Source: Ignavibacteriales bacterium (GTDB taxonomy: Bacteria > Bacteroidota > Ignavibacteria > UBA10030 > UBA6906). From it: a DNA stretch of 25,777 nucleotides. Under the pieces are notes generated by a model. The model did no database searches. It was given only the letters and a program-made list of their open reading frames with translations, and was not told the DNA's origin. The number at the start of each line of letters is the position of its first letter. The stretch's first letter is position 1. The position numbers and the translations under genes were made by a program. Below, piece by piece: positions 1 to 18,827 of this stretch. Where the stretch lies: positions 1 through 25,777 of the forward strand of contig JBBIRR010000051.1 of NCBI GenBank assembly GCA_037441705.1. Direction: 5' to 3'.

Positions 1-532
1 GTCCAGCTTCGGCGGCGATGATCATGCGATAGGCATCGACCGGAAGAATGAGCGATCCGACGGCGTTGGTGTCGGCGTACCAGTCGCGAGTGGCAACCGT
101 TTGATCCACATTCAGCACAAAGGGTTGTCCGCCGATCAGTCCGCCGAGCGTGTCGTAGAACCAGAACTTCAGTTGCCAGCGGGCCTGATCGTTGGCGGGA
201 TTGATGTTGACGCCGCTGGTTTTGACGTAGGCGCCGACTTTGATGTCCACGTTGCGGGGAATCTTATCCACCCAGTACCGCACCTGATTGCCGCTGATCC
301 ATCGGGACATCGAGCCGGTGGTGGTTTTGACGATCTTCAATGAACGCGGGCTTCCGCCGTAGGTCTGATCGGTGGCCCAGCTGAGCGTGGCTCCTCCGGG
401 TTCCGGAAACCACAACGAGGGCTTCCCACTCTCAAACCCACCGTTTGGAAGCAGGTTGGTCGTCTGTCCCAACGCAACGACGGCGAGGGACAGAAAGGCG
501 ATCGGCACAAAAGAAAGTATGCCGTATCTCAT
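1..532 (-). CDS. Secreted carbohydrate-binding-module (CBM4/9/16/22-like jelly-roll) protein, 3' end outside the window
   Basis: Manual translation from ATG 532: MRYGILSFVPIAFLSLAVVALG-QTTNLLPNGGFESGKPSLW..., a signal peptide followed by the 'NLLxNGGFE' start typical of CBM4_9-like modules. The frame is open to the window edge and a perfect SD (TAAGGAGGTG) lies at 537-546. Absent from the ORF track because it has no stop in the window. Confidence 0.75.
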   Translation of the reverse strand, partial: MRYGILSFVPIAFLSLAVVALGQTTNLLPNGGFESGKPSLWFPEPGGATLSWATDQTYGGSPRSLKIVKTTTGSMSRWISGNQVRYWVDKIPRNVDIKVGAYVKTSGVNINPANDQARWQLKFWFYDTLGGLIGGQPFVLNVDQTVATRDWYADTNAVGSLILPVDAYRMIIAAEAG

Positions 533-7130: not shown

Positions 7131-8291
7131 ATGAAACGCGTCTACCTCGACCATACCGCCACCACACCGCTGGACGAACGCGTCTTCGAAGCAATGCGTC
7201 CATACTTTTCGGAGACGTTCGGAAATGCCTCCTCGATTCATTCTTTCGGTCGGGAAGCGAAGGCGGCGTTAGAGAAGGCGCGAGAGACCATTGCTAAGGC
7301 CATCGGCGCGCAGAGCGGCGAGCTGTTCTTCACCAGCGGCGGAACGGAATCCGACAACTTTGCCATCCGAGGCGTTGCACTTGCCGCACGAAAGAAAGGC
7401 AAGACGCACATCATCACATCGGCAGCGGAGCATCATGCCGTGCTCGAGCCGTGCGAGGGACTCACGGAGGAGGGATTCGACGTCACGGTGCTGCCGGTGG
7501 ACAGCCACGGACTCGTCACCCCCGAACAGGTGCGGACTGCCATCACCGATCGGACCTGTCTCGTTTCCATCATGCATGCCAACAACGAAGTTGGGACGAT
7601 CTATCCGATCAAAGAAATCGCCGCAATGGCCCACGAGCAAGGCGTGCTTGTTCACACCGATGCCGTTCAGACGCTGGGCAAGATCCCTGTGGACGTGAGA
7701 GAGTTAGAGATTGATCTGATGACGATCTCTGCGCATAAGTTGTATGGCCCGAAAGGCATCGGTGCGCTGTACGTGAAAAAGGGGACCGAACTTGAGCCGC
7801 TTCTGTATGGTGGGGGACAGGAGCGCGGCAAGCGTCCCGGCACGGAAAACGTTCCTCTGGTAGTAGGCTTCGCGCGGGCGGTTGATCTTGCTCTTGCAGA
7901 AATGTCCACCGAAATGCAGCGGCTTGCCCTGCTGCGGCAGAGTCTCGAATCCAGAATACGCGACGAGTTTCCTGCCGCAATCATCAACGGTCATCCGACA
8001 CACCGCCTGCCCAACATCCTCAACATCTCGTTCGACAGCTCGAAGTTGAACATTGATGGTGATGTGTTGGTGTTGAATATGGATTTACACGGCGTCGCCG
8101 TGACCAGCGGCTCGGCGTGCACATCCGGCAGTATGCAACCCTCGCATGTTCTTCTCGCGATGGGACGCGATGTGAAGACCGCAAAAGCAACGTTGCGCTT
8201 CGCGTTCGGGAAGTGCAACGCCGAAGACGACGTCGCTGCGGTTGTACAACGCTTGCAGGACGTGATTGGGCAAATGACCCGCCGGGGATAG
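7131..8291 (+). CDS. iscS: Cysteine desulfurase, IscS/NifS type (group I)
   Basis: 'YLDHTATTP', 'FTSGGTESDN', PLP lysine 'SAHKLYGPKG', catalytic 'SGSACTS'. Confidence 0.93.
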   Translation: MKRVYLDHTATTPLDERVFEAMRPYFSETFGNASSIHSFGREAKAALEKARETIAKAIGAQSGELFFTSGGTESDNFAIRGVALAARKKGKTHIITSAAEHHAVLEPCEGLTEEGFDVTVLPVDSHGLVTPEQVRTAITDRTCLVSIMHANNEVGTIYPIKEIAAMAHEQGVLVHTDAVQTLGKIPVDVRELEIDLMTISAHKLYGPKGIGALYVKKGTELEPLLYGGGQERGKRPGTENVPLVVGFARAVDLALAEMSTEMQRLALLRQSLESRIRDEFPAAIINGHPTHRLPNILNISFDSSKLNIDGDVLVLNMDLHGVAVTSGSACTSGSMQPSHVLLAMGRDVKTAKATLRFAFGKCNAEDDVAAVVQRLQDVIGQMTRRG

Positions 8292-8452
8292 TTGCGTGTG
8301 AAAGTCTGACCAAGGCAACAACTGAAAGCAGCCCGGAGCCTGAACGTACATGGGAGACAGCGCGTGTAGTTTTGTAAGATTGTGAAGTAAGAATAACATT
8401 ATCGCTTCCGAACAGCCCGCGGAAATGCCGAGCGTTGAGCGACGGGTGCTTC

Positions 8453-8467
8453 TGGCGCGCATCTTGG
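8453..8467 (+). promoter_or_regulatory. Candidate sigma54 -24/-12 promoter with variant -12
   Basis: TGGCGCG-CATC-TTGG against consensus TGGCACG-N4-TTGC; 50 nt upstream of the lipoprotein ATG; AT-rich tract upstream. Confidence 0.45.
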
Positions 8468-8517
8468 AGCAGAAGGAGTGCATTGGTTCCACATTCACGA
8501 AGGGGAAAGAAAGCATT

Positions 8518-8838
8518 ATGGTTCGAGTTCTTGTTGCGTGCATACTCGTTCTTGGCCTGGTGGGCTGCGGCCTCGGGAACGATGATGGGTCACAAACGGC
8601 AGTCAGAATGGTGCAAGATTTCAAACCGACCGGAGGCGGAAGCACGCTCGCCCAGATGGTGGCCTCGGCGTTTCCTGCCGGCGAGTGGGATGTCACGAAG
8701 ACTTCCGAAAGTTTGTATCGCGTCATCTTCCGTCCGTCTTCCGGAGAGAGCAAGGAATTGGTCTTCGGTGTCAGCATCAACAAGCATCACGTGATGGCAC
8801 TGAACCGCGACGCGCTTGCCTTCACCAACCCCCGCTGA
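8518..8838 (+). CDS. Small hypothetical lipoprotein (106 aa)
   Basis: MVRVLVACILVLGLVG-C lipobox; purine-rich RBS AAGGGGAAAG upstream. Confidence 0.75.
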   Translation: MVRVLVACILVLGLVGCGLGNDDGSQTAVRMVQDFKPTGGGSTLAQMVASAFPAGEWDVTKTSESLYRVIFRPSSGESKELVFGVSINKHHVMALNRDALAFTNPR

Positions 8839-8859
8839 GTTTGCGCAACCCCGATGAAC

Positions 8860-8888
8860 AAAAAAAGCCCGACCGGATCGTCGGGCTT
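8860..8888 (-). terminator. Rho-independent terminator of the minus-strand MerR transcript
   Basis: Stem AAGCCCGAC/GTCGGGCTT with a 6-nt loop; the A-run at 8860-8866 gives a U-tract on the minus strand; lies between convergent genes. Confidence 0.8.
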
Positions 8889-8909
8889 CATGGGTTGTGT
8901 TGAGAATCG

Positions 8910-9293
8910 TCAGTTCAGCTTTTGCAGAAGTTCCTCCAGAAATTTCTTCACCTCCAGTACATCGTTGCGCAGCTGCTCATCTTTGATCTTCGTTCGAAGC
9001 CTCGGCGAGTCGATCAACTCCAGCTGTTCGCCTGAGTCGCTATCGGGGGTGTAGTTCTTCAGGACCTGCTTGGCGCCTTCGATCGTGTAGCGTTCGTCGC
9101 GCAGAAGCTTCTTGATGTAGAGGATGAGCTTGATATCGCGGTTGGTATAGATGCGGTTGCCGGCTCGGTTCTTCTGCGGCTTCAGCTCGTCGAATTCCGA
9201 CTCCCAGTATCGCAGAACATACTGCTCGAGGTCGGTAATCTTGCTCACCTCGCTGATGGAGTAATAGAGCTTCTTGATGCCGGTGGCTTTCAT
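8910..9293 (-). CDS. MerR-family HTH regulator (short MlrA/LdtR-like type)
   Basis: 'YYSISEVSKITDLEQYVLRYWESEF..LKPQKNRAGNRIY', 'YTIEGAK'; no metal-binding Cys. Confidence 0.88.
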   Translation of the reverse strand: MKATGIKKLYYSISEVSKITDLEQYVLRYWESEFDELKPQKNRAGNRIYTNRDIKLILYIKKLLRDERYTIEGAKQVLKNYTPDSDSGEQLELIDSPRLRTKIKDEQLRNDVLEVKKFLEELLQKLN

Positions 9294-14045: not shown

Positions 14046-15632
14046 ATGTTCACCTTTCACACATGGTCAATCTCCCGCAAGATTCTGTTTGGGATTTTGC
14101 CGCTGTTCCTTCTGTTCATAGCATTGAGTGTGGCTATCAACAACCGCTTTCAGGAACAGGAGATGATGGAACAGGCGCAGATTGCTGCACACACCTACGG
14201 CGAGATCATCCGAGAAGCGCTCGTGAGCATGATGGTGAACAATCTGGAGGTGGATGAGAGTTTTCTCAATCGCGCCGGTTTGTTGCAGCCCTTTGACTCG
14301 CTTCATATTCTGGTCAACGATCTCAAGCTGCGCCCGGAAGTCCTGACGCCGAAGAACGTCAAACGGGTCGACACGCGGCACAAGGTTCTCGCCCCGCACG
14401 ACGACGTCGAGCGCGACGTGCTGCGCACGGGGCACCCGCGATTCATCCGCGACGGCGATAAGTTCCGCGGCGTGGTTCCGTTCAACGCTACCGAGGTATG
14501 CCAGAAGTGCCACGCCGTGCCGGTGGGGTACACGCTCGGCGCGACGGACCTGCACATCTCGCTCTCGCAAATCTCCGCTGCGGCGCAGGGAAACTGGAAA
14601 CGGTCGTTCATTCTCTTGGTGGGGTTTTCCATCGTTGCCGTCATTGTTGCCGGCATGATGTTCAACCGGTTCGTCTCGCGACCGGTGGAGAAGCTGGTCA
14701 AGGCAACAACGGCGATCAGCGGCGGCAACCTGGATTATGATGTGGTGGAAGGAGATGAAGGCACGGTCGGCCATTCCAACGACGAGCTTGCCTTTCTCTC
14801 GCTAAAATTCGACGCGATGCGCCGTTCGCTCAAAGAGAAGATCGAACAGCTGGACGAGGCGAACAGAAGTCTGGCCGAACGAAACGCCGAAATCGAGCAA
14901 GCACTCGCGCGCCTCAAGCAGGCACAGGAGGAGCTTGTGCGAAGCGAGCGCCTCGCTGCGACGGGGAAGATGACGGCGCAGCTTTCGCATGAGATCAACA
15001 ATCCCATTCACAACATCCAGAGTCTGCTCGAGTCCTCGCTGCGGAAGGTGGATGGGTCGACGCGGGAGCTTCTCGCTCTGGCGCTCGAGGAGGTGACGCG
15101 GATGGCGAAGTTGACGCGCCAGATGCTGGAATTCTATCGCGGCTCCGTCGTCGAGATTGAACGTGTGCCGGTTGATGTGAAGGAAATACTGAACAATCTT
15201 GTGCGAGAGAATGGGGCCGTGCTCGAGCAGCACGGCATCCAAACCGTTCTCGACGTTGCTGACGGCAAATCCTGTGTGCTCGGTTCGCGCGACAAGCTGA
15301 AGCAGGTGTTCCTCAACCTCATCCTCAACGCGCGGGATGCAATGCCGCACGGGGGAACACTCACCCTGCGGGTCCGGCATGCCAACGGCCGCGTGCAGAT
15401 TGATGTTGCCGACACGGGAGTCGGCATACCGCCGGAGAATCTCGGAAGAATCTTCGATGCCTTCTTTACCACGAAAAAAGAAGTCAGCGGTGTAGGGTTG
15501 GGCCTGTCGGTAACGTACGGGATTATTCAGCAGCACAACGGCACCATCACGGTCTCCAGCACGCCCGGCAAGGGGGCCACATTTCATATCGCACTACCAG
15601 CAGCAGAGGAAACGCATGTCGAAAGGACCTGA
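14046..15632 (+). CDS. Sensor histidine kinase with periplasmic CxxCH (putative heme c, DUF3365-like) domain, HAMP, HisKA, HATPase
   Basis: Two TMs; 'VCQKCH' just before TM2; H-box 'SHEINNPI'; 'QVFLNLILNARDAM'; 'DTGVGI'; 'GVGLGL'. Confidence 0.92.
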   Translation: MFTFHTWSISRKILFGILPLFLLFIALSVAINNRFQEQEMMEQAQIAAHTYGEIIREALVSMMVNNLEVDESFLNRAGLLQPFDSLHILVNDLKLRPEVLTPKNVKRVDTRHKVLAPHDDVERDVLRTGHPRFIRDGDKFRGVVPFNATEVCQKCHAVPVGYTLGATDLHISLSQISAAAQGNWKRSFILLVGFSIVAVIVAGMMFNRFVSRPVEKLVKATTAISGGNLDYDVVEGDEGTVGHSNDELAFLSLKFDAMRRSLKEKIEQLDEANRSLAERNAEIEQALARLKQAQEELVRSERLAATGKMTAQLSHEINNPIHNIQSLLESSLRKVDGSTRELLALALEEVTRMAKLTRQMLEFYRGSVVEIERVPVDVKEILNNLVRENGAVLEQHGIQTVLDVADGKSCVLGSRDKLKQVFLNLILNARDAMPHGGTLTLRVRHANGRVQIDVADTGVGIPPENLGRIFDAFFTTKKEVSGVGLGLSVTYGIIQQHNGTITVSSTPGKGATFHIALPAAEETHVERT

Positions 15633-17037
15633 ACGGAACAACGAAAGCATCCTCGTCGTTGACGACGACAAAGCATTTCGTGTTGCAACACGGACGGTGC
15701 TTGAAGACGAAGGCTACAGCGTGCTGCTGGCCGCCACGCCGGAGGAAGCGCTGGCGACTCTGGCGTCCTCGGAGGTCGATCTGCTTCTGTCGGATCTCGT
15801 GATGGCGAAGATGACCGGCATGGAGCTTCTTGAAACCGTCAAGACACAGTATCCCGACCTTACGGTCATCATGGTCACAGGCTTCGGTTCGATCAACACG
15901 GCGGTGGAGGCCATGCGATTGGGGGCGGAAGACTATCTGACCAAGCCGTGCAACAATGCCGAGCTTCTCTTCAAGATTCGCCGCGCGCTGGACGTTCGCC
16001 GCAAGGATCGTGAGTTGAAGCATCTGCGCGAGGAACTCCGATCCACCTACAGCTTCGGGAACTTGCTGACGCGCAGCGACAAGATGAAGCACGTCATTCA
16101 ATCCATCCGGCAGGTTGCGGACACCGACGTGACGATTCTGATTCAGGGCGAGAGCGGGACGGGTAAGGAGCTGGTTGCTCGGGCACTGCACTACAACAGC
16201 AACCGCAAAGCCAAGCCATTCATTGCCGTGAACTGCTCGGCCATTCCCGAGAATCTCCTGGAAAGCGAGCTGTTCGGCCACGAAAAAGGCGCATTCACGG
16301 GCGCCCTCAGGCAGAAGATCGGAAAGTTCGAGGAAGCAAACGGCGGCACGCTCTTCCTCGATGAGATCGGCGATCTTGCCCCTTCCATCCAAACAAAACT
16401 CCTCCGCGTGCTTCAGGAGAAGACCTTCGAGCGCGTAGGAGGCAATGCGCCGATCACGGTTGACATCCGCATCATTGCGGCGACCAACCGCGACCTGGAA
16501 GCGATGAGCAAGCAGGGAGATTTCCGTGAGGACTTGTTCTTCCGCCTGAACGTGTTTCCCATTTACCTTCCGCCCCTGCGCGAACGCCTGGAGGATATCC
16601 CGCTGCTGGCGGAACATTTTCTGCAGCGCCACGCCGATCTTGTGAACAACCGCGTGAAGTATATTTCTCCCAAAGTCATCACCGACATGATGAATTACCG
16701 CTGGCGCGGCAACGTGCGTGAGTTAGAGAATTTGATCAAACGCGCAATGATCAAGACTCCCGGCGATACGATTATGAGCATCGAGCTGCCGACGAACGAA
16801 GCGGTTCAACAGGCGCCGCCTAAAGACGCCGCGCCCGATGTGGATTTGAACACGCCGTTCAAAGACTACATCAACGCCATCGTGCGCGACGCCGAGGAAA
16901 AATATCTCCTGAGAATGCTGCGCTTGTACCGAGGCAACATCAACCAGATTGCCCGGCTCATGGACATTGATCGCAAGACGGTGTACCGGAAGATGGCGGA
17001 GTATTCCATCGATCCGGGGACGTTCCGCGAGGCGTGA
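15616..17037 (+). CDS. sigma54-dependent response regulator (NtrC/AtoC/ZraR family)
   Basis: REC domain (VVDDD, phospho-Asp in LLSD), AAA+ 'GESGTGKE', intact GAFTGA, 'FLDEIG', C-terminal Fis-type HTH. Confidence 0.96.
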   Translation: MSKGPERNNESILVVDDDKAFRVATRTVLEDEGYSVLLAATPEEALATLASSEVDLLLSDLVMAKMTGMELLETVKTQYPDLTVIMVTGFGSINTAVEAMRLGAEDYLTKPCNNAELLFKIRRALDVRRKDRELKHLREELRSTYSFGNLLTRSDKMKHVIQSIRQVADTDVTILIQGESGTGKELVARALHYNSNRKAKPFIAVNCSAIPENLLESELFGHEKGAFTGALRQKIGKFEEANGGTLFLDEIGDLAPSIQTKLLRVLQEKTFERVGGNAPITVDIRIIAATNRDLEAMSKQGDFREDLFFRLNVFPIYLPPLRERLEDIPLLAEHFLQRHADLVNNRVKYISPKVITDMMNYRWRGNVRELENLIKRAMIKTPGDTIMSIELPTNEAVQQAPPKDAAPDVDLNTPFKDYINAIVRDAEEKYLLRMLRLYRGNINQIARLMDIDRKTVYRKMAEYSIDPGTFREA

Positions 17038-17043
17038 TGGCGC

Positions 17044-17274
17044 CTACAATGCGCGGAGCTCTCCACTCACCCGGATTTCAACCTCGATCCCTTCAACCTC
17101 CTGGGGAATGGAGGCTCGGATCGTCTCCGGGTTTTCCTTCACGGACACGATCACGCCCACGTTGCCCGATGCGGTTGTGCCGATGCCGACGGCAACGACT
17201 CCCGCAAGCGCCAGCCATTGCTGTTCGTACCTGTGCTTGATCTGTTTGACGCGATCTAAATCCACATCACTCAT
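17044..17274 (-). CDS. 76-aa protein homologous to the N-terminal domain of the adjacent protease
   Basis: ATGA-coupled to the protease; 'GVVAVGIG...IPQEVEGIEVEI..SG' aligns with protease 'NVVAVGVG...IPESVQGIPTDV..TG'. Confidence 0.85.
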   Translation of the reverse strand: MSDVDLDRVKQIKHRYEQQWLALAGVVAVGIGTTASGNVGVIVSVKENPETIRASIPQEVEGIEVEIRVSGELRAL

Positions 17275-18269
17275 GGCAGCGTAACGCCCAAGGCCGTAAA
17301 CACGTTTTGAATTCGATTGATAATGGTTGAGGTATTACTTCCGGCGAACAGCAGCCCGACAAGCCGGTTCTGATCGTCCAGCACCGCTGAACCGCTATCA
17401 CCTCCCTGACTCATTGCCCCGGCCATGAGTTGATCACTGAACGTCGCCACCTTGTTCGAACCGTAACTGACGCTTGCCGTCACATCAATTTGCTGGATGG
17501 AGCCGGTCGTCAGTCCCGTCGTACGCCCGCTTTTCTTGACGGACATGCCGAGCGTTCCTTCGGCAACGCCGGTGATTGTGCCGATTTCCAGAATCTGGGC
17601 CGTCACATCCGACGGGTTGATCGGCTGAGCAATGGCGCAGTCCACAAGATTTTCCTGCGCTACAGCCGCTGCCTGCAGCCGTGTGCTGCTGCCAACGGCG
17701 GCGGCGAGACCGTTCAGCACGGAAGCAACCGCACTTCCGATGGGGCAGGGGATGGTACCCGTGGTGAAGTTGATGGGAACAAACTCGCTCAAGCGTGCAA
17801 TCGTATCGTTCTGCTGCGTCCCACCGTCGTACGGTCCGGGCTGCAGAATCGGATCGCCGACAGATGCTTCATTGCTGTTGGCAAGTACGTGATTGTTGGA
17901 GAGAATGTAGATCGTGTTGTTCTTCTTGACCAAACATCCCAGCGTGCCGGCGGTGATGAGATAGTGTCCGATGCTGACGCCGCCGGGCGCTGGTCGGTGA
18001 CGCTCCGTGCGGCTCTGCTGTGCAAAGATGACACCCGTCGAATTCACGTCCGTGGGAATGCCTTGCACGCTCTCGGGAATCATCTCGGCTGCCGTCAGAG
18101 ACACCTTCGCCGCTTTCACCTCCACCGAACAGATCAATGCGAGTTGACCGGTTTTCTTGCCTTGCACCGTTTTGTATCCAACGCCGACCGCGACGACGTT
18201 GCGTCGCCGCAGCAGTTCGCGGCGCGCTGAGCGCAGAACGTTTCTGCAATCTTCCAACTGGACCGCCAT
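17271..18269 (-). CDS. Nal1-like trypsin-fold serine protease
   Basis: 'RPAPGGVSIG...GTLG', His 'SNNHVL', Asp 'VDCAIA', 'KSGRTTGLT', Ser 'GDSGS'; SD AAGGAGG; no signal peptide. Confidence 0.88.
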   Translation of the reverse strand: MAVQLEDCRNVLRSARRELLRRRNVVAVGVGYKTVQGKKTGQLALICSVEVKAAKVSLTAAEMIPESVQGIPTDVNSTGVIFAQQSRTERHRPAPGGVSIGHYLITAGTLGCLVKKNNTIYILSNNHVLANSNEASVGDPILQPGPYDGGTQQNDTIARLSEFVPINFTTGTIPCPIGSAVASVLNGLAAAVGSSTRLQAAAVAQENLVDCAIAQPINPSDVTAQILEIGTITGVAEGTLGMSVKKSGRTTGLTTGSIQQIDVTASVSYGSNKVATFSDQLMAGAMSQGGDSGSAVLDDQNRLVGLLFAGSNTSTIINRIQNVFTALGVTLP

Positions 18270-18329
18270 AACCGCCTCCTTGCGTTATGTGTGGGGAATG
18301 TCCGTCAGTGTTGTGTGCGTAGACGGAGG

Positions 18330-18725
18330 TTAACGTACAACGACTGTCTTCTCCAATCCCTTGTGTGCAGATGAACCGAACCTGAGCGTGTAAATGCCCG
18401 GCTGCTTTGGCAGGAGTGTGGACTTCACATTCAGCGTGCCTATGGTCTGGATGCAGGGCCGCCCATCATATCGGGCGTAGATGGTAATCTCGTATGTAAA
18501 GCCGATCGTGTTCACGACGACGCGCTCGAGTTCCCAGCAGGGATTCGCGGTGCTGCAGACTGCTTCGAATCGGATCGGTTCGCCGAGTGTCACGGTATCG
18601 GGCAGCGATGCCGAAACAACAGCAACGGGAGATGTTTGTATGGCGGTCGGTCGTTCCGCACATGAAAGCATTGTGCACACACAGACCAGCGCAGGAATGT
18701 AGGTCAATCGGCTCAGCATCCGCAT
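18330..18725 (-). CDS. Hypothetical lipoprotein, Ig-like beta-sandwich
   Basis: Signal ending TMLS-C; 'LPDTVTLGEPIRF', 'PGIYTLRF'; three further Cys. Start is 18725 or 18719. Confidence 0.7.
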   Translation of the reverse strand: MRMLSRLTYIPALVCVCTMLSCAERPTAIQTSPVAVVSASLPDTVTLGEPIRFEAVCSTANPCWELERVVVNTIGFTYEITIYARYDGRPCIQTIGTLNVKSTLLPKQPGIYTLRFGSSAHKGLEKTVVVR

Positions 18726-18798
18726 CACTCTCGAGGCCGCTGGATAGAAGTTGAGCGGGCGAAAACACCGGACGGTGGTTCCGGAATCGTGCTGCCGC

Positions 18799-18827
18799 AA
18801 TGTACTTCAAAAAAAGAGTTGACGCAA
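18799..18827 (-). promoter_or_regulatory. sigma70-type promoter of the lipoprotein-protease unit
   Basis: TTGCGT, 17 bp, TACATT on the minus strand. Confidence 0.6.

Follow-up and report, generated by a model that had tools for sequence, protein, structure and literature searches.

In the window of 25,777 nucleotides (the whole stretch of DNA that was analysed), two overlapping genes encode a serine protease, which its predicted fold marks as a NAL1-type enzyme, and a 76-aa protein that our comparisons confirm, at the sequence level, as an ancient, intact and free-standing copy of the N-domain of that protease, homologous end to end to its first ~84 residues. The best explanation is that the two genes encode one functional unit. 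We lean towards a reading in which the small protein is a dedicated active-site cap that would inhibit the protease and might in addition serve as a chaperone of its folding or assembly; its binding and geometry are predicted, and from them we infer inhibition. The features of the locus are listed in Table 1.

Table 1. Features of the protease and partner genes (positions in the window)
Feature	Position	Strand	Basis
Predicted NAL1-type S1 serine protease gene, 332 aa, stop codon 17271-17273	17271..18269	-	ORF, Trypsin_2, fold match to NAL1
Protease N-domain, residues 1-84	18018..18269	-	AF2 secondary structure, profile alignment to NAL1
Linker between N-domain and protease core, residues 85-96	17982..18017	-	Low pLDDT, conserved motif
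S1 protease core, residues 97-332, triad His127/Asp210/Ser292 (GDSGS)	17274..17981	-	Invariant triad, superposition
Small partner gene, 76 aa, stop codon 17044-17046	17044..17274	-	ORF, hhalign to N-domains
Partner C-terminal tail, residues 69-76, V-S-G-E-L-R-A-L-COOH	17047..17070	-	Complex prediction, fixed C-terminus
ATGA, overlap of protease stop and partner start	17271..17274	-	Sequence
Shine-Dalgarno sequence AAGGAGG, 5 nt upstream of the protease ATG	18275..18281	-	Sequence

The two open reading frames and the ATGA coupling reported by the sequence-only reading are present as described, on the minus strand, with lengths of 76 aa and 332 aa. The ATG of the partner and the TGA of the protease share 4 nt, and no Shine-Dalgarno sequence was found before the partner gene. 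Judged from its sequence, this overlap indicates translational coupling of the protease and its partner. Among related loci, the same 4-nt overlap is seen for 31 of the 32 downstream partners of the signal-peptide type and for 3 of the 21 same-strand downstream partners without a signal peptide. A 156-aa lipoprotein-like ORF lies upstream (18330-18800); since only the two closest relatives (L001 and L002) share it, we rejected it as a member of the module.

The name Nal1-like, given to the protease from its sequence, was borne out by profile and structure searches. In Pfam, Trypsin_2 matched with 33.7 bits (cut-off 27.6), and the two families built on NAL1 scored below their gathering thresholds (NAL1_N, PF25608, 21.0 against 27; Nal1_C, PF25819, 19.5 against 26.1); PF25608 is nevertheless present in the precomputed annotation of several close protease homologues. 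A profile of the protease matched the NAL1 chains of the PDB with an E-value of 6e-8, its positions 25-129 aligning to NAL1 residues 112-236. The AF2 model of the protease (pLDDT 86.8) retrieved NAL1 in Foldseek (E 2.5e-15), and with VIA the model superposed from residue 1 to 332 on NAL1 residues 89-444 (7y77_A; Z 25.1, rmsd 3.6, 279 residues aligned), at about 19-20% identity. The closest class after NAL1 is that of the alpha-lytic-type proteases, on which the core superposes with Z-scores of 16.6-18.3. H127, D210 and S292 are invariant in 63/63 protease sequences, and the family as a whole comprises at least 7,999 clusters at 90% identity.

Rice NARROW LEAF 1 (NAL1; PDB 7Y77, 8PME, 8PMG, 8PMM and 8HAS) has the same arrangement, with an alpha/beta domain of ~85 residues ahead of an S1 protease. 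Because the model superposes on NAL1 residues 89-444, we consider the N-domain to be the counterpart of the ATP-binding domain of NAL1. It is modelled as a helix (residues 5-20) and three strands (25-35, 38-49 and 71-77). Its residues K33, K52 and D74, invariant in 63/63 protease N-domains, align with NAL1 R120, K139 and D166, which contact ATP according to the available text of the NAL1 study (PMC12012508). The alignment thus suggests that the ATP-contact residues as well as the catalytic triad are kept in the bacterial enzyme. The two proteins differ in that the bacterial protease has neither the N-terminal region of NAL1 (residues 1-88) nor its C-terminal extension, and a free-standing partner is not described for NAL1. 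Between N-domain and core, residues 86-96 have a pLDDT below 50 and the modelled linker (residues 85-96) is probably flexible; it carries the motif T-x-R-x-R-P-A-P-G-G, in which R92 and P93 are found in 63/63 sequences.

The end-to-end alignment of the small protein with the protease N-terminus, noticed in the earlier reading, was recovered by BLASTP as a single comparison (partner residues 4-75 against protease residues 3-83, 25% identity, E 1e-4). The profile-profile check that it had called for gave a match over 79 columns with a probability of 99.3% and an E-value of 3.4e-20 (hhalign between a profile of 64 small proteins and one of 63 protease N-domains). Moreover, of 80 related loci, 77 have a protease whose N-domain is matched by the small-protein profile, with domain E-values from 3e-4 to 3e-17; in the other 3 the protease is cut by a contig end. 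Taken together, these three results place the likeness far beyond chance. In a quick joint tree, free copies and protease N-domains fall on separate branches. This separation and the 25% identity argue for an old duplication, in agreement with the earlier description of the copy as diverged but intact and not recent. No family of Pfam or NCBIfam matched the 76-aa partner. It has four close homologues, each of 76 aa, and its profile finds 5072 representatives at E<=1e-3, a count that includes protease N-domains.

The free copies differ from the N-domains at the putative nucleotide site. The 5-residue loop of this site is missing in the partner of this locus and in 58/64 partners overall, and the residue aligned with K33 is a lysine in 9/64 and that aligned with D74 an aspartate in 7/64. 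As far as can be judged from the alignments, the NAL1-type nucleotide site is lost in most partners. Neither the correspondence of the N-domain to the ATP-binding domain of NAL1 nor the loss of its site in the free copy had been seen in the sequence-only reading. The C-terminus of the partners lies at a fixed position: it coincides exactly with the end of the profile in 152/195 single-domain members and falls within +2 in 179. Exactly one residue follows a G-x-x-x-[A/S/T] motif in 137/164 partners, and the tail consensus is G-x-I-[R/K]-A-x-COOH.

Recurrent pairing, which the earlier reading had proposed to look for by a gene-neighbourhood survey, was found in many phyla. The partner gene adjoins the protease gene in 72/80 loci, downstream in 60 of them, upstream on the same strand in 10 and divergent in 2. 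The pair also occurs on a Bacillus cereus plasmid, with a protease 39% identical to this one. Among five genomes with an apparently "orphan" protease, four hold a free copy elsewhere in the genome. Two natural fusions were found, one ordered N-domain, protease, extra copy (P0165) and the other extra copy, N-domain, protease (P0178). A word-index search for longer proteins holding the domain returned 1 match among 8,000 candidates. No third conserved gene was found at the related loci. A small ORF after a Clostridium novyi plasmid paralogue proved unrelated.

We then modelled the protease and its partner as a 1:1 pair. The predicted complex reached an ipSAE of 0.91 in three runs, the best of 3 controls reaching 0.00; this mark is reached by 116/157 solved complexes and 2/215 mismatched pairs, and it may in part mirror likeness to solved complexes, of which a protease with its pro region is one type. 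The three runs share at least 98% of their contacts, with a pLDDT of 89 for the partner. On the protease side the predicted interface comprises residues 127, 210, 259-270, 287-292 and 307-314, and on the partner side residues 26-33 and 69-76. In the model, the partner tail (residues 69-76) touches protease residues 267-268, 309 and 311 and the region of H127, D210 and 287-292. As a point against the cap reading, over 50 pairs the last residue of the partner did not co-vary with protease residue 84 or with the cleft residues 288, 312 and 313. The view of the small protein as a dedicated partner is supported by the natural fusions and by a complex prediction that passed its controls.

Because the tail occupies the catalytic cleft in the predicted complex, the partner is best read as a pro-region-like cap or inhibitor that acts in trans. 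Alpha-lytic-type proteases are the S1 group that uses pro regions. The pro region of alpha-lytic protease binds its protease by hairpin strand addition, with its C-terminal tail in the active site, and aids folding when supplied in trans; pro regions of alpha-lytic protease and of subtilisins work as active-site caps and chaperones. The partner would resemble the pro regions of alpha-lytic protease and streptogrisin in being an ~80-residue alpha/beta domain, with predicted strand addition and a tail predicted in the active site, so the analogy with alpha-lytic protease that had been drawn from the sequence suits the predicted binding. Profile searches returned no sequence link to these pro regions by the thresholds used: PF02983 (Pro_Al_protease) matched neither the protease nor the 76-aa partner at E<=1, at E<=0.01 it matched none of the 64 small proteins, and PDB searches with the partner or N-domain profile returned no pro-region chain, the N-domain profile finding NAL1 only (E about 0.005). 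The systems also differ in other respects. Here the cap would be encoded by a separate gene and the enzyme retains its own uncleaved copy, and alpha-lytic protease is secreted, whereas both proteins of this pair are without a signal peptide. The present family is not known to undergo autocleavage.

In the mechanism that we favour, the protease would consist of a nucleotide-binding and oligomerisation N-domain, a flexible linker and an S1 core with the H127/D210/S292 triad, and the ATGA overlap would allow the partner to be made in step with it. The first beta-strand of the partner would add onto the protease hairpin 259-270, and its C-terminal tail would occupy the substrate cleft next to the catalytic triad, much as a cleavage product would if it stayed bound. 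The cap may thereby hold the protease inactive, a state that would end with displacement or degradation of the cap or with assembly of the protease. We infer both the inhibition and the release. According to the available text of the NAL1 study (PMC12012508), the homologous domain of NAL1 belongs permanently to the enzyme and forms the trimer, unlike a pro region that is cleaved off, and the cage has its active sites on the inner side. A cap at each site would have to act before, or instead of, assembly.

We found no characterised bacterial system like this pair in the literature searched, in agreement with the sequence-only reading. Stand-alone subtilisin-propeptide inhibitors are grouped in family I9. 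Plasmodium SUB1-ProM, as far as the available text of its source describes it (PMC6993865), is comparable: it is encoded by a small separate gene beside a protease gene, is homologous to the N-terminal domain of that protease and is its selective inhibitor, whereas inhibition is only predicted here. Inhibitors of the SUB1-ProM type differ from the present one in acting on subtilisin-fold proteases of eukaryotes, as against an S1-fold, NAL1-type protease of bacteria. In addition, the homologous domain of the enzyme would here be a nucleotide-binding and oligomerisation counterpart and not a removable propeptide.

The partner could instead belong permanently to the protease oligomer, as a subunit that completes or stabilises it without inhibiting it; it might, for example, take the place of NAL1 residues 1-88 in stacking. 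We regard this as unlikely but worth serious consideration. In the available text of the NAL1 study, beta-strand 1 of the N-terminal region stacks two trimers into the active hexameric cage, the homologous domain makes trimer contacts and the hexamer is needed for activity (PMC12012508). The bacterial protease starts at the equivalent of the ATP-binding domain and thus has no such region, fusions into one polypeptide occur, and coupled translation suggests matched amounts. However, the predicted interface is the catalytic cleft (H127, D210, 287-292, 307-314) and no peripheral surface, and the strictly fixed free C-terminus suits a tail that binds in the cleft and has no obvious role in a scaffold.

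By analogy with pro regions, the partner may also be a transient intermolecular folding catalyst only, destroyed afterwards and without a regulatory role. Its predicted binding mode would be the same as that of a cap, and the core resembles the alpha-lytic-type proteases that use such helpers. We consider this quite improbable. The protease already has its own copy of the domain, and NAL1 needs no such helper in the published work as far as its available text goes (PMC12012508); the sequence holds nothing that separates a chaperone from an inhibitor.

A further feature of the family is the distribution of signal peptides. No signal peptide was found on the proteases in the set examined, nor on the 76-aa partner of this locus. 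A signal-peptide-like N-terminus is present in 34/63 partner homologues from the loci and, in a wider set, in 89/195, with 16 of them lipobox-like. The earlier description of the system as cytoplasmic therefore stands for this pair and has to be qualified for these homologues. On the joint tree, close partners are separated by at least 5 gains or losses of the signal peptide, while the protease stayed unchanged. Tat "hitch-hiking" was rejected as a general explanation for the signal-bearing partners, because RR occurs in the first 8 residues of only 7/89 and because the signal-like N-termini are short and very hydrophobic. In lineages with signal-bearing partners a stable cytoplasmic cap is hard to picture, which counts against the cap model; that about half of the partners carry a signal peptide and no protease does is an odd point that this model leaves unexplained.

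These signals recall polymorphic toxins and effector-immunity pairs, in which an enzyme gene is accompanied by a small protective partner gene. On such a reading, the protease would be released or delivered to other cells and the partner would protect its site of action, in the periplasm when it bears a signal peptide and in the cytoplasm when it does not. The gene arrangement is alike, with a signal-less protease gene followed by a small coupled gene whose product has a Sec or lipoprotein-type signal in many lineages. Secreted tandem arrays of the domain without protease exist (P0125, P0146 and P0159), the distribution among relatives is patchy (16/41 genomes), and relatives are found on plasmids and in a few viruses. 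We nevertheless judge it very unlikely. The partner studied here has no signal peptide, and the repeated gain and loss of the signal beside an unchanged protease speaks against it. No trafficking domains were seen, and the small protein of this pair is related by duplication to a domain of the enzyme itself, which sets the pair apart from known effector-immunity pairs. We scanned 137 of the 143 called flanks, six being dropped as protease fragments (L027 and L064), ORFs of <100 aa (L073, L074 and L080) or a duplicate of L032 (in L034). They hold one secretion-type gene, a T2SS/T4P-type ATPase beside L007, and no recurring secretion system, trafficking domain, lysis gene or defence gene. The flanking genes are ordinary chromosomal genes with no functional theme, and PADLOC-DB holds no family that matches the protease and a single model that matches the small protein, at E 0.021.

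The toxin-antitoxin or defence module suggested by the sequence-only reading, in which the protease would be a growth-arresting toxin checked by a labile antitoxin and the module might act against phages, was not supported by these PADLOC and flank results. It can claim the coupled two-gene operon with a predicted active-site blocker, the patchy distribution with decayed copies in congeners and a match in PHROGs, where only the generic "protease" family was found (E 1.5e-75), but mobile or toxin-antitoxin-type genes make up only 5/137 flanks (two transposases, one ParE, one HEPN and one nucleotidyltransferase), a relative is present in only 3 of 50,697 phage records and an "antitoxin" that half of the lineages export is at odds with such a module, which makes it highly improbable.

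A wider reading, which we put forward as speculative and doubtful, would join the cap to the export signals and to the origin of NAL1. The cap might couple the activity of the protease to export: the amount of cap in the cytoplasm would depend on export efficiency, and the protease would be switched by the export state. Alternatively, an exported cap could protect the periplasm from this same enzyme when kin cells release it. The ATP-binding domain of NAL1 would then be a fossil pro region, one copy having become a permanent, nucleotide-locked oligomerisation domain and the other having stayed a removable active-site cap. If the fossil reading were true, the same kind of control could extend to plant NAL1.

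NAL1 is a major rice yield gene; the structure of its protease, with an unusual architecture that forms a cage and binds ATP, has been solved only recently. Our results indicate that a NAL1-type core is widespread in bacteria, usually beside a small dedicated partner that has no name in any database. Signal-bearing partners pose a concrete puzzle, namely where the protease and the cap meet. If the small protein is a cap, it would give S1-fold proteases of this type their first known example of a stand-alone, pro-region-like inhibitor. Such a cap would offer an experimental handle on the silencing of NAL1-type proteases and a hint at the origin of the odd ATP-binding domain of NAL1.

On the minus strand the protease gene is followed head to tail by the small gene, and both ORFs and their overlap can be read directly in the sequence, as the sequence-only reading had proposed for the coupling of the 76-aa gene to the protease. 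Inspection of the sequence upstream of the small gene revealed no Shine-Dalgarno motif, and its expression therefore depends on translational coupling. The genome holds just one such pair. The kinase-regulator arrangement next to it is common to the window and the related locus L002, and the regulator is also present in L001. The 156-aa ORF on the other side matched no Pfam or NCBIfam family and is kept only in L001 and L002 among the related loci.

The gene pair and its neighbours in the window
Feature	Coordinates	Strand	Remarks
Protease ORF	17271..18269	-	332 aa
Small partner ORF	17044..17274	-	76 aa; own ATG overlaps protease TGA (ATGA)
Protease Shine-Dalgarno, AAGGAGG	18275-18281	-	strong
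Histidine kinase gene and sigma-54-dependent response regulator gene	14046-17037	+	528 aa and 473 aa; overlap by 17 nt; 6 nt separate the end of the regulator gene from that of the convergent small partner gene
ORF with lipoprotein-like signal	18330-18800	-	156 aa; 60 nt upstream of the protease

The small protein was also expected to match the N-terminus of the protease, and it does so beyond chance: BLASTP aligned its residues 4-75 with protease residues 3-83 (25% identity, E 1e-4). Profiles of 64 small proteins (A1) and 63 protease N-domains (A2), which like A3 (63 full-length proteases) come from related loci, aligned over 79 columns with an hhalign probability of 99.3% (E 3.4e-20), which bears out the relationship at family level. 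An exhaustive profile search for the small protein retrieved 5,072 cluster representatives, protease N-domains among them, at E<=1e-3; at E<=1e-10 there were 1,032. Lengths of 70-100 aa predominate in the best 150. Their source annotations are hypothetical; Pfam names six of the 64 A1 proteins, as NAL1_N, and the other 58 match nothing (the scan gives the number of these six, the only small proteins matched by NAL1_N, and not their identities). Natural fusions occur in both gene orders: P0165 (432 aa) consists of N-domain, protease and extra copy, and P0178 (416 aa) of extra copy, N-domain and protease. P0221 (392 aa) resembles a protease-partner pair read through after a frameshift. Tandem arrays with a signal peptide and no protease carry three (P0125, 255 aa), four (P0159, 493 aa) or five copies (P0146, 584 aa). 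P0146 also scores 44 bits against Pfam FeS_assembly_P (DUF59; cut-off 23.5), with no single stretch passing alone.

In a quick maximum-likelihood tree of low resolution (127 rows, 88 columns), a branch with support 90 sets apart the 63 N-domains, on whose side six loop-bearing Chloroflexota copies also fall, and the 58 loop-less small proteins form one group (support 94). Partner clades mirror N-domain clades. These separate groups and mirrored clades indicate that the free copy is old and inherited jointly with its own protease.

The protease itself is of the NAL1 type. It scores above threshold for Pfam Trypsin_2 (33.7, cut-off 27.6) and slightly below for NAL1_N (21.0, cut-off 27) and Nal1_C (19.5, cut-off 26.1), and the A3 profile matches rice NAL1 structures (E 6e-8 to 7e-7, with NAL1 residues 112-236 opposite profile positions 25-129). 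In a Foldseek search, the AlphaFold2 model (pLDDT 86.8, pTM 0.83, with linker 86-96 below 50) gave NAL1 chains as top matches (E 2.5e-15, TM 0.62-0.66). VIA-align placed model residues 1..332 on NAL1 89..444 (Z 25.1, rmsd 3.6, 279 residues), followed by alpha-lytic-type proteases (Z 16.6-18.3) and HtrA/Deg (11-14). The catalytic triad H127/D210/S292 is invariant in the 63 proteases, and so are K33, K52 and D74 of the N-domain, which align with the NAL1 ATP contacts R120, K139 and D166. PMC12012508 describes an "ATP-binding domain" at NAL1 residues 89-172, through which the trimer contacts to the neighbouring protease domain are made, and a region (residues 1-88) that stacks two trimers into an active hexameric cage with the active sites inward. 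Since the model superposes on NAL1 89..444, the bacterial N-domain is the counterpart of this ATP-binding domain, whereas the first 88 residues of NAL1 are absent from the bacterial protease.

The free copy differs from the N-domain at the ligand site. Of the 64 small proteins, 58 lack the five-residue loop after G-I-G that holds the phosphate-binding residues of NAL1; K stands opposite K33 in 9/64, and D opposite D74 in 7/64. The nucleotide site appears to be lost in the free copy. The loop is kept in six Chloroflexota copies (L059, L066, L067, L072, L076 and L078), most of which keep the K and the D. The C-terminus is fixed: in 195 single-domain members (the 150 representatives plus A1), it falls exactly at the last profile position in 152 and within two residues of it in 179. 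The resulting tail, G-x-[I/V/L]-[R/K]-A followed by a last residue that is mostly Q (78), L (28), R (21) or H (10), aligns with the end of the protease N-domain (consensus T-G-x-I-R-A-L-Q), directly before the flexible linker.

Complex prediction for protease (A3) and partner (A1) gave an ipSAE of 0.91 in three of three runs, against 0.00 for the best of three controls; the mark used is reached by 116/157 solved complexes and 2/215 mismatched pairs. The runs share at least 98% of contacts, with a partner pLDDT of 89. The predicted interface comprises protease residues 108, 125, 127 (His), 132, 210 (Asp), 240-241, 259-270, 276, 280, 282, 287-292 (Ser loop), 307-314 and 316, and partner residues 10, 13, 17, 21, 26-33, 39, 42, 44 and 69-76. 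Confidence is highest for the pairing of protease 260-266 with partner 28-32, by strand addition, and of protease 267/268/309/311 with partner 73-75, the tail lying in the cleft. Both features are present in the complex of alpha-lytic protease with its pro region, a likeness through which the pass could owe something to solved complexes. The prediction thus supports binding of the partner to the protease but does not prove it.

We prefer, with moderate confidence, to read the partner as a pro-region-like cap that acts on the protease in trans. It would be made in step with the enzyme, its product-like tail would block the active site, and it may also help folding or control assembly. Because the NAL1 active sites face a closed cage, the cap would most likely act before assembly or in its place. 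A permanent structural subunit seems unlikely. It is less probable again that the partner is purely a folding helper.

Some observations fit the cap poorly. Pfam scans and PDB profile searches detected no similarity in sequence to the pro region of alpha-lytic protease. Ahead of the domain, 34/63 locus partners and 89/195 of the wider set carry a hydrophobic N-terminus of 20-25 residues whose start is basic (a lipobox-like Cys in 16 of the 89); it is absent from all proteases examined. The extension is very probably translated, since the longer ORF starts at the exact 4-nt overlap with the protease stop in 31/32 measurable cases. Related partners show at least five gains or losses of the signal, and the partner in the window is without one. 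Partners with a signal-peptide-like N-terminus occur in Desulfobacterales, Gammaproteobacteria and Chlorobiota (for example L007:4996-5277, L013:4996-5277, L006:4996-5277, L050:5008-5292). A putatively exported cap is hard to reconcile with a signal-less protease. Twin-arginine co-export was considered and rejected because RR occurs in only 7/89. An effector-immunity-like pair is scarcely probable.

Recurrent pairing, which the sequence-only reading had proposed to survey, was found in 72 of 80 related loci from Ignavibacteriota/Chlorobiota, Calditrichota, KSB1, Desulfobacterales, Gammaproteobacteria, Bacteroidota, Chloroflexota, Coriobacteriia and others, where the small-protein profile detects an adjoining ORF. 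The partner lies downstream on the same strand in 60, upstream on the same strand in ten Chloroflexota loci (L055, L058, L059, L066, L067, L070, L072, L076, L078, L079) and divergently in two Balneolales loci. Eight of these Chloroflexota loci share an upstream MBL-fold gene, and five a downstream ArsR-DUF2087 gene. The remaining eight loci comprise one cut at a contig end and seven without an adjacent partner; five of these seven were searched as whole assemblies, and four hold a free copy elsewhere, in two cases beside a second protease paralogue. On a Bacillus cereus plasmid, a 76-aa gene lies 14 nt upstream of a protease 39% identical to ours, and its product matches both the N-domain of its own protease (E 2e-7) and the profile of the small proteins (97.9%, E 4.9e-13).

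No third gene is conserved across the 80 loci. Of the 143 immediate flanks, the 137 that were scanned hold genes of an ordinary chromosomal kind, apart from a ParE, a HEPN, a nucleotidyltransferase and two transposases. A toxin-antitoxin or defence module is very improbable. The module is accessory, because matches are patchy: 16/41 related genomes (our own counted) and 6/11 other genomes of the genus, two of them decayed to a 25-residue remnant (G014:C87:15856-15930) or a partner gene in which two TGA codons stand in frame (G008:C112:10744-10974). Two related genomes (G033:C39:70588-72857 and G002:C12:114876-118487) have extra copies, in one case a small copy on each side of the protease and in the other two small copies after it. 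In L063, some 3.3 kb downstream of the pair, the locus ends with a second, partial partner-like domain (8249-8965) in an ORF whose upstream part looks spurious. Protease relatives of 35-40% identity form multicopy tandem clusters on plasmids of Clostridium novyi and the C. botulinum group, with up to 25 matching places on one 68-kb plasmid; the one small ORF tested there (117 aa, after the paralogue in L084, C. novyi plasmid pCN2 region) is not of the partner family. Relatives of 33-35% identity also occur in a 484-kb uncultured phage and Aeropyrum coil-shaped virus (LR756508.1, 90301-91158; HE681887.1 / NC_043427.1, 10565-11449), and the PHROGs "protease" family phrog_20754 matches the protease at E 1.5e-75.

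In the literature searched, whose coverage leaves out most subscription journals, we found no description of a bacterial NAL1-type protease with a small partner. Among subtilases, inhibition by a free-standing copy of the protease's N-terminal domain is already known; stand-alone propeptide-like inhibitors such as Plasmodium SUB1-ProM (PMC6993865) are analogues. The present system resembles these but differs in its protease, and what is new is the S1/NAL1 architecture, an enzyme whose own retained copy would, by analogy with NAL1, be a domain for nucleotide binding and oligomerisation, and a partner that is probably exported in many lineages.
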